From the NCBI RefSeq assembly GCF_006345805.1, contig NW_021835258.1, positions 1 through 41,818 of the forward strand: DNA of 41,818 nucleotides, read 5' to 3'. Below are positions 4,746 through 4,946 of the stretch, in pieces (positions within the stretch are counted from its first letter, which is position 1; each line of letters opens with the position of its first letter). The notes under the pieces are model-generated. The model was not told the DNA's origin. It worked only from the letters and a program-made list of their open reading frames with translations, and did not search any database. The position numbers and the translations under genes were made by a program. This DNA is from Octopus sinensis. Lineage: Eukaryota.

Positions 4746-4943
4746 GTAGGTCCCGGTTGATTCGGGGTTAACCACAGTAAATAAGGTACTCAATACATAG
4801 TAGAGTAAAATAATTTATCATATAGAAGGAGCTTCTACAGGACTAGAACTGTTTCATTCAAGAGAAATCTTCAGGAAGCTTCCTGAAGATTTCTCTTGAA
4901 TGAAACAGTTCTAGTCCTGTAGAAGCTCCTTCTATATAATAAA

Positions 4944-4946
<3 letters not shown>
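4745..4946. mobile_element. Fold-back element with hammerhead motifs, probably a Penelope-like inverted pLTR remnant
   Basis: 68-bp arms (4811-4878 and 4879-4946) with one mismatch and no spacer; unique left tail about 4745-4810; (TA)n on both sides. Confidence 0.75.
4873..4930 (+). ncRNA. Type-I hammerhead ribozyme motif (mirror copy on minus strand about 4827-4884)
   Basis: Stem I AGCTTC(4877-4882)/GAAGCT(4922-4927); core CTGAAGA 4883-4889; short stem II TTC-tctt-GAA with a U-U first pair; GAA at 4902; stem III ACAG/CTGT; GUA cleavage triplet 4919-4921. Confidence 0.75.

Follow-up and report, generated by a model that had tools for sequence, protein, structure and literature searches.

Penelope-like elements (PLEs) are described as inserting with an inverted, 5'-truncated copy plus a tail of 30–40 bp (PMC8557442; PMC3846280), and PMC11167929 equates this tail with the distance between two reverse transcriptase (RT) start sites. 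In the in vitro work of that paper, both target strands are cut and extended, targets are AT-rich and the enzyme is a predicted dimer; hammerhead cleavage is dispensable there, and mutating the hammerhead leaves insertion normal (PMC11167929). Also in print are pLTRs inverted head to head, with a palindrome and an overlap at the junction and a tail on one side (PMC3846280, PMC8557442), and PLE hammerheads that include, in Schistosoma, opposite-strand pairs 100–700 bp apart (PMC4209133). The formation of inverted ends and the completion of integration are both stated to be unresolved (PMC8557442, PMC11167929). The anatomy of an inverted PLE end is already known; what 4745–4948 of our window (the whole stretch of Octopus sinensis DNA analysed, 41,818 nucleotides) adds is testable detail of the junction. 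We read this locus as probably two 5'-truncated stubs of a PLE family, set head to head at a 4-base self-complementary site.

Positions 4811–4946 form a zero-spacer palindrome (axis 4878/4879, 67 of 68 pairs), with 59 perfect pairs outward from the axis, one mismatch (4819/4938) and 8 further pairs. Folded as RNA, the whole palindrome reaches −107.3 kcal/mol (z −20.5), matched by none of 200 shuffles. The full element is larger, at about 4745–4948 (204 bp), and is bounded by (TA)n on both sides: the minus-strand arm alone continues into a 66-nt tail, and the plus-strand arm enters (TA)n at once. An earlier note, made by a model from the letters of this DNA, had given the extent as 4811–4946, which is exact for the palindrome but misses the tail at 4745–4810. 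Left and right arms differ at 2 of 70 positions. The element and its flanks are laid out as follows.

4704–4744, no strand: (TA)n tract at the long-arm end, the likely target site (from sequence; (TA)n lies outside the same end in loose ends of paralogues)
4745–4810, minus strand: 66-nt tail, on one arm only and part of the family (covered by family contigs in four of four runs; no mirror on the right)
4811–4878, minus strand: left palindrome arm, its sense directed outward from the axis (at 4819 it departs from most of the family)
4830–4880, minus strand: type I hammerhead-like motif, core 4874–4868, predicted cut after 4836 (descriptor match, mirror of the plus-strand motif)
4877–4880, no strand: AGCT, self-complementary 4-nt overlap of both copies around axis 4878/4879, the last letters in common with the unfolded parent
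4877–4927, plus strand: type I hammerhead-like motif, predicted cut after 4921 (sequence, folding and descriptor match)
4879–4946, plus strand: right palindrome arm, ending at the short (tail-less) 3' end of the family
4948–5006, no strand: (TA)n tract at the short-arm end (from sequence)

On the plus strand, stem I (4877–4882 with 4922–4927) has 6 bp and can be lengthened by GG/CC beyond a bulged A4876. The motif continues through the core CUGAAGA (4883–4889), a stem II made of a U–U plus 3 bp with a 4-nt loop, GAAA (4902–4905), a 4-bp stem III (4905–4908 with 4917–4920) whose 8-nt loop has CUAG exactly centred, and a GUA site ending at 4921; the minus strand holds the identical mirror motif (4880–4830). 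All core positions are present (C3-U4-G5-A6-N7-G8-A9, G12-A13-A14, A15.1-U16.1 and H17, with A at both N7 and H17). The G10.1–C11.1 pair that closes stem II, described in PMC4209133 as highly conserved, is absent, with a U–U instead. The palindrome and the motif together bear out the earlier note where it placed the axis inside stem I, with AGCT self-complementary and stem I kept on both strands, and where it called stem II weak with a U–U first pair. Its two overlapping divergent hammerheads in 136 bp are indeed present as hammerhead-like motifs, one per strand, but the overlap is only 4 nt (4877–4880) and their joint span 98 bp. A type I descriptor matched 5 core positions in the window, all within three palindromes; in 200 block-wise dinucleotide shuffles its loose setting gave 0.135 matches per window and its strict setting, which takes the stem lengths of the 4877–4927 motif itself, gave 0. 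Scanned with Rfam, neither the window nor the motif by itself gave a hammerhead match, only sub-threshold miRNA-hairpin matches, and a more canonical hammerhead-like motif at 37650–37745 was missed as well.

The helix sizes (6 bp, and 4 with the U–U) resemble canonical metazoan type I motifs, and a U–U also occupies the base of helix II in the axolotl retrozyme HHR_Amex2, which is described as cleaving weakly (PMC7229834). Both features would suit a fragment of a non-LTR retrozyme, a tandem hammerhead repeat spread by circular RNA, here inverted by DNA repair. Against such an origin, copies end in (TA)n at fixed points without a next unit, their boundaries lie away from the cleavage site, and no tandem copy was found within the window. 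We consider it very unlikely and rejected the retrozyme as a candidate, the 3' ends running into (TA)n where tandem units bounded at the cleavage site were looked for.

Folding predictions do not bear out a functional back-to-back ribozyme, as the earlier note had proposed. For RNA with its 3' end at 4930, the probability of forming stems I and III is 0.36 from a start at 4877, 0.13 from 4870 and 2e-5 from 4865; from 4870 it ranges from 0.13 to 0.002 depending on the 3' end, and from 4811 it is about 1e-49 to 5e-49 or lower. Judged by the starts at 4877, 4865 and 4811, the active hammerhead fold is predicted not to be accessible in genomic context. Fragment 4870–4935, suggested for a cleavage assay, has the axis hairpin as its best structure, and RNA read through the axis is computed to form a 68-bp hairpin. 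Because a transcript through the axis folds in this way, each motif is probably blocked by its own mirror image, and we reject 4811–4946 as a working double ribozyme; on these models, the palindromic copy should be inactive except where transcription begins only a few letters from the axis. For the isolated motif, a dimer through the palindromic CUAG loop is predicted (−27.0 versus 2 × −8.5 kcal/mol). The parent motif may be weakly active.

The element family is very abundant and high-copy in public contigs. Contigs from 4 of 24 runs (X1, X2, X3 and X14) aligned to 4745–4900, with 840, 6302, 1420 and 2 contig records respectively, and 20 runs from five organisms hold part of the family; contig depth is here distinct from copy number. 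At least 11, 51, 12 and 1 loose-end records of X1, X2, X3 and X14 have (TA)n directly outside the tail end, and at the tail-less end (TA)n loose ends occur at the mirror of 4813 in at least 15, 17 and 15 records and at the mirror of 4810 in at least 5. Because these (TA)n loose ends recur at both 3' ends across contigs (agreement 0.91–1.0), both ends of the 4745–4948 copy are family-typical. Among the positions listed, only 6 are variable at 3% or more and none lies in the hammerhead core or stems, so the family consensus keeps the core, as the earlier note's reading implied; the family is young, and this conservation therefore gives no proof of selection. The left arm departs from the family majority at 4801, 4810 and 4819, and the right arm agrees with it at the mirrors of 4810 and 4819, indicating that these left-arm changes postdate mirror formation. 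At 4820 and 4863, where the family is polymorphic, the two arms agree in their allele.

Zero-spacer palindromes are a known type of chimera, and none of the contigs listed spans the whole of 4745–4900, as would suit an assembly or amplification artefact. We reject this explanation as extremely improbable on account of the differences between the arms, their different, family-typical ends, and the presence of depth past the axis in three deep runs from two studies. Pattern scans of metagenomes for the element gave 0 and 0 matches; a looser pattern gave at least 120 and 100 matches on prokaryotic and viral contigs, and these were set aside as chance, none of 220 loci aligning (E 1e-3).

Homology to other copies ends at 4880, with loose ends beginning behind it, and the unfolded parent thus carries AGCT. 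Loose ends past 4880 begin AGTTAACAA in at least 5 records of X1 and at least 29 of X2 (agreement 0.63 and 0.77), and the commonest sequence beyond 4880 in these two runs is not the mirror; in X3 the consensus begins AGCTT (at least 20 records, agreement 0.59), a hint of another axis displaced by two letters. Taken together, the loose ends past stem I vary in sequence (agreement 0.59–0.77), which suggests that termination near stem I is common among the copies. One X2 record (record 18, a 61-nt contig with 7 differences) crosses axis 4878/4879 and extends to 4893, exactly where a 31-mer unitig entering this palindrome centre is bound to break off. X1 record 8 spans both arms and lacks 10 central letters, so palindrome centres also vary. 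To judge from these contigs, the same axis is apparently present in at least one other copy, yet is not the family norm; either repeated events or one amplified master would fit this recurrence. Self-complementary 4-mers take in 9 of about 134 positions of the long arm (7%), and taken alone the 2-nt match to the parent beyond the axis is therefore weak evidence.

Depth past the axis also bears on the reading of the palindrome as a short non-autonomous element, either MITE-like or a PLE mini-master, that arose a single time and has since multiplied as one unit. At 4883–4888 it reaches 6126 in X1, 143857 in X2 and 1492 in X3, far above the range of 5–333 for individual contigs among those listed, and a large part of it breaks off between bins 4889–4894 and 4895–4900; some may come from parent words placed at the mirror (2, 53 and 0 records fit at two positions). 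The TA flanks of 4745–4948, which we take to resemble Tc1/mariner targets, would suit such a unit as well. Relative to the adjacent arm bin, however, this depth is only 2.8%, 11.6% and 0.17% (X1, X2 and X3, a 70-fold spread), the commonest X1 and X2 sequence beyond 4880 departs from the mirror, the tail makes the element asymmetric, and the centre of the X1 contig is 10 nt shorter. Amplification as a unit is on balance distinctly unlikely, and a MITE was rejected: in place of symmetric terminal inverted repeats and uniform copies we found an asymmetric tail, with most depth staying on one side of the axis.

Two further hammerhead palindromes lie in the window. The first, 23237–24227, is a 990-bp zero-spacer palindrome (axis 23732/23733, arms about 99% identical) with a type I hammerhead-like motif in each arm (cores 24108 on the plus and 23356 on the minus strand), each with a long stem II and a minimal self-complementary stem III; (TA)n follows directly on its right arm, and on the left (TA)n is reached only after about 120 nt more. 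It represents a different family with the same anatomy as 4745–4948. Within each of its arms there is a diverged internal direct repeat (23737–23821 versus 23894–23955, 80–84%). The second, 37605–38004, has arms of about 200 bp (about 95% identity) and a 6-nt spacer in a GC-rich hairpin. Its long arm extends for roughly another 150 nt before reaching (TA)n. Within 37460–38004 the minus-strand motif is intact (core 37727); in the plus-strand copy the core is broken by a C3-to-G change, and stem III has gained a 1-nt insertion. No sequence family common to the 4811–4946 palindrome and these two was found. Turning points lie about 370 nt (23237–24227) and about 55 nt (37605–38004) upstream of stem I; stem I is thus not a general turning point, contrary to what the earlier note would lead one to expect.

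Elsewhere in the window, 22439–22586 is an inverted repeat (about 50 bp per arm, TA-rich spacer) within what we take to be a SINE-like repeat, and 14178–14430 is a short tandem repeat, seen as a repeated peptide in translation. A short frame at 32151–32453 (plus strand) presumably resembles the C-terminal restriction-like endonuclease of R4/Dong LINEs, with only an unrelated sub-threshold match in Pfam. Those at 615–983 (minus) and 36717–37328 (plus) we assume to be like CR1/L2-type LINE reverse transcriptase fragments, and that at 12468–12746 (plus) like a DNA transposon protein fragment; none of these three had a Pfam match. Across 148 of 232 candidate window frames, Pfam gave no match above cut-off and 6 weak matches below it, and six-frame translations of the arms, inspected by eye, contained no RT or GIY-YIG.

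Several features argue that the element very probably belongs to the PLE class: an inverted, 5'-truncated, head-to-head copy, a tail at one end (two recurring 3' ends), a type I hammerhead motif and an AT-rich, microsatellite target, whose (TA)n would mask any target duplication. The inverted PLE-type end read by the earlier note is likewise supported by the head-to-head arms, the one-sided tail and the (TA)n at both ends. Judged on sequence features, 4745–4948 appears to work like a PLE mini-insertion; no ORF with RT and GIY-YIG was found in the stub or among the window frames scanned. Following published PLE biochemistry, the RT-endonuclease of the element would nick both strands of the (TA)n tract, and cDNA would start at two neighbouring sites of an uncleaved element RNA, yielding one arm with the 66-nt tail and one without; the two ends themselves are observed. 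That the template was uncleaved follows from both arms running through the predicted cut site, in line with the normal insertion of hammerhead mutants (PMC11167929). Copies would tend to stop just upstream of stem I, as the loose ends partly show, and two cDNA 3' ends stopping at AGCT could anneal through this 4-mer and prime each other, leaving a zero-spacer palindrome with stem I kept on both strands. The product would be self-silenced, its transcript through the axis being computed as a long hairpin. We give about even chances to a junction made in this way, by two separately primed cDNAs joined at AGCT. Two identical 3' ends are predicted to pair through AGCT at −3.8 to −4.8 kcal/mol, a marginal 4-bp duplex, and joining blunt ends there would produce the identical sequence. 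In the sense reading of the parent, a T-rich stretch and a YAG ending exactly at the axis (4878–4880) resemble a 3' splice site, which may be coincidence; in Drosophila virilis Penelope, the 5' end of helix I is where the end of the intron has been mapped (PMC4209133).

A single cDNA (or antisense RNA) might instead fold back at the stem I word and copy itself, an endonuclease then resolving the hairpin at the short end. Self-priming has been proposed for PLE junction palindromes (PMC3846280), the arms are identical over 59 bp and have both polymorphic alleles in common (the shared alleles at 4820 and 4863 also fit one arm having been copied from the other), and the 6-nt spacer of 37605–38004 is what a looped fold-back would leave. 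At 4811–4946, however, the spacer is zero, so that a loop would have no place, and the final 10 nt are predicted to be unfolded; AGCT is unable to snap back. The favoured fold of the cDNA end is onto 4830–4835 (P about 0.6); its product would contain a spacer and a single motif, unlike the structure found here. No such joint occurs among the contig joints listed, a weak test given short contigs, and a second step would be needed to stop at the recurring short end of the family. Fold-back priming at AGCT, by which the earlier note had explained the inversion, is thus not supported and in our estimate unlikely. Annealing of two cDNAs is favoured over it because AGCT would have to snap back without a loop and the preferred fold-back gives a single-motif hairpin.

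Taken further, the annealing of two cDNAs raises the tentative and somewhat doubtful idea that in this family the 5' edge of stem I is a programmed stop-and-join point, where the cDNAs made by each half of a dimeric PLE enzyme end and pair at a cluster of self-complementary words (AGCT and, as X3 hints, the overlapping CTAG). If so, the sequence of a ribozyme stem, and not catalysis, would close the insertion and seed repeated self-silencing hairpin copies, and the locus would let the second-strand step, an unsolved part of PLE integration, be read from the genome. As a ribozyme it has little importance, since neither motif is expected to act within the palindrome. Transcripts of such hairpins, were they made, could supply small RNAs that silence the family. 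With its very many short copies, nearly identical to one another, its pair of fixed 3' ends and its recurring junction, the family is good material for weighing annealing against fold-back. No report of a palindrome axis inside stem I was found in the literature searched, mostly non-subscription papers, and a motif search found four short motifs absent from one supplement file of PMC8557442.

Compared with EN+ PLE insertions as described (PMC3846280; PMC8557442; PMC11167929), 4745–4948 shares the inverted head-to-head copy, junction palindrome, extension at one end, AT-rich or microsatellite target and type I hammerhead in the pLTR. It differs in that both copies are reduced to the hammerhead plus 3' end (204 bp, with no linked ORF), in an overlap of 4 nt inside stem I against 15 bp in a published example, and in a tail of 66 nt against 30–40 bp. 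With the PLE hammerheads of PMC4209133 it has in common the type I topology, a palindromic loop 3 that allows a dimer, and opposite-strand pairs; unlike them, its pair stands at zero distance with an overlap, its stem III is a 4-bp monomer helix, a U–U replaces G10.1–C11.1 and stem II is short, not long. Retrozymes such as HHR_Amex2 (PMC7229834; bioRxiv 10.64898/2026.07.22.740005) are likewise described as type I with a U–U, high-copy and of probable PLE origin, but here the window holds no tandem units, the 3' ends are fixed and bounded by (TA)n, and the copies are inverted, not direct. The two arms of 4745–4948 run head to head over the same sequence. L1 twin priming inverts the 5' part by joining two primed cDNAs at a microhomology; here, by contrast, both copies cover the same sequence, so that their join is a palindrome.
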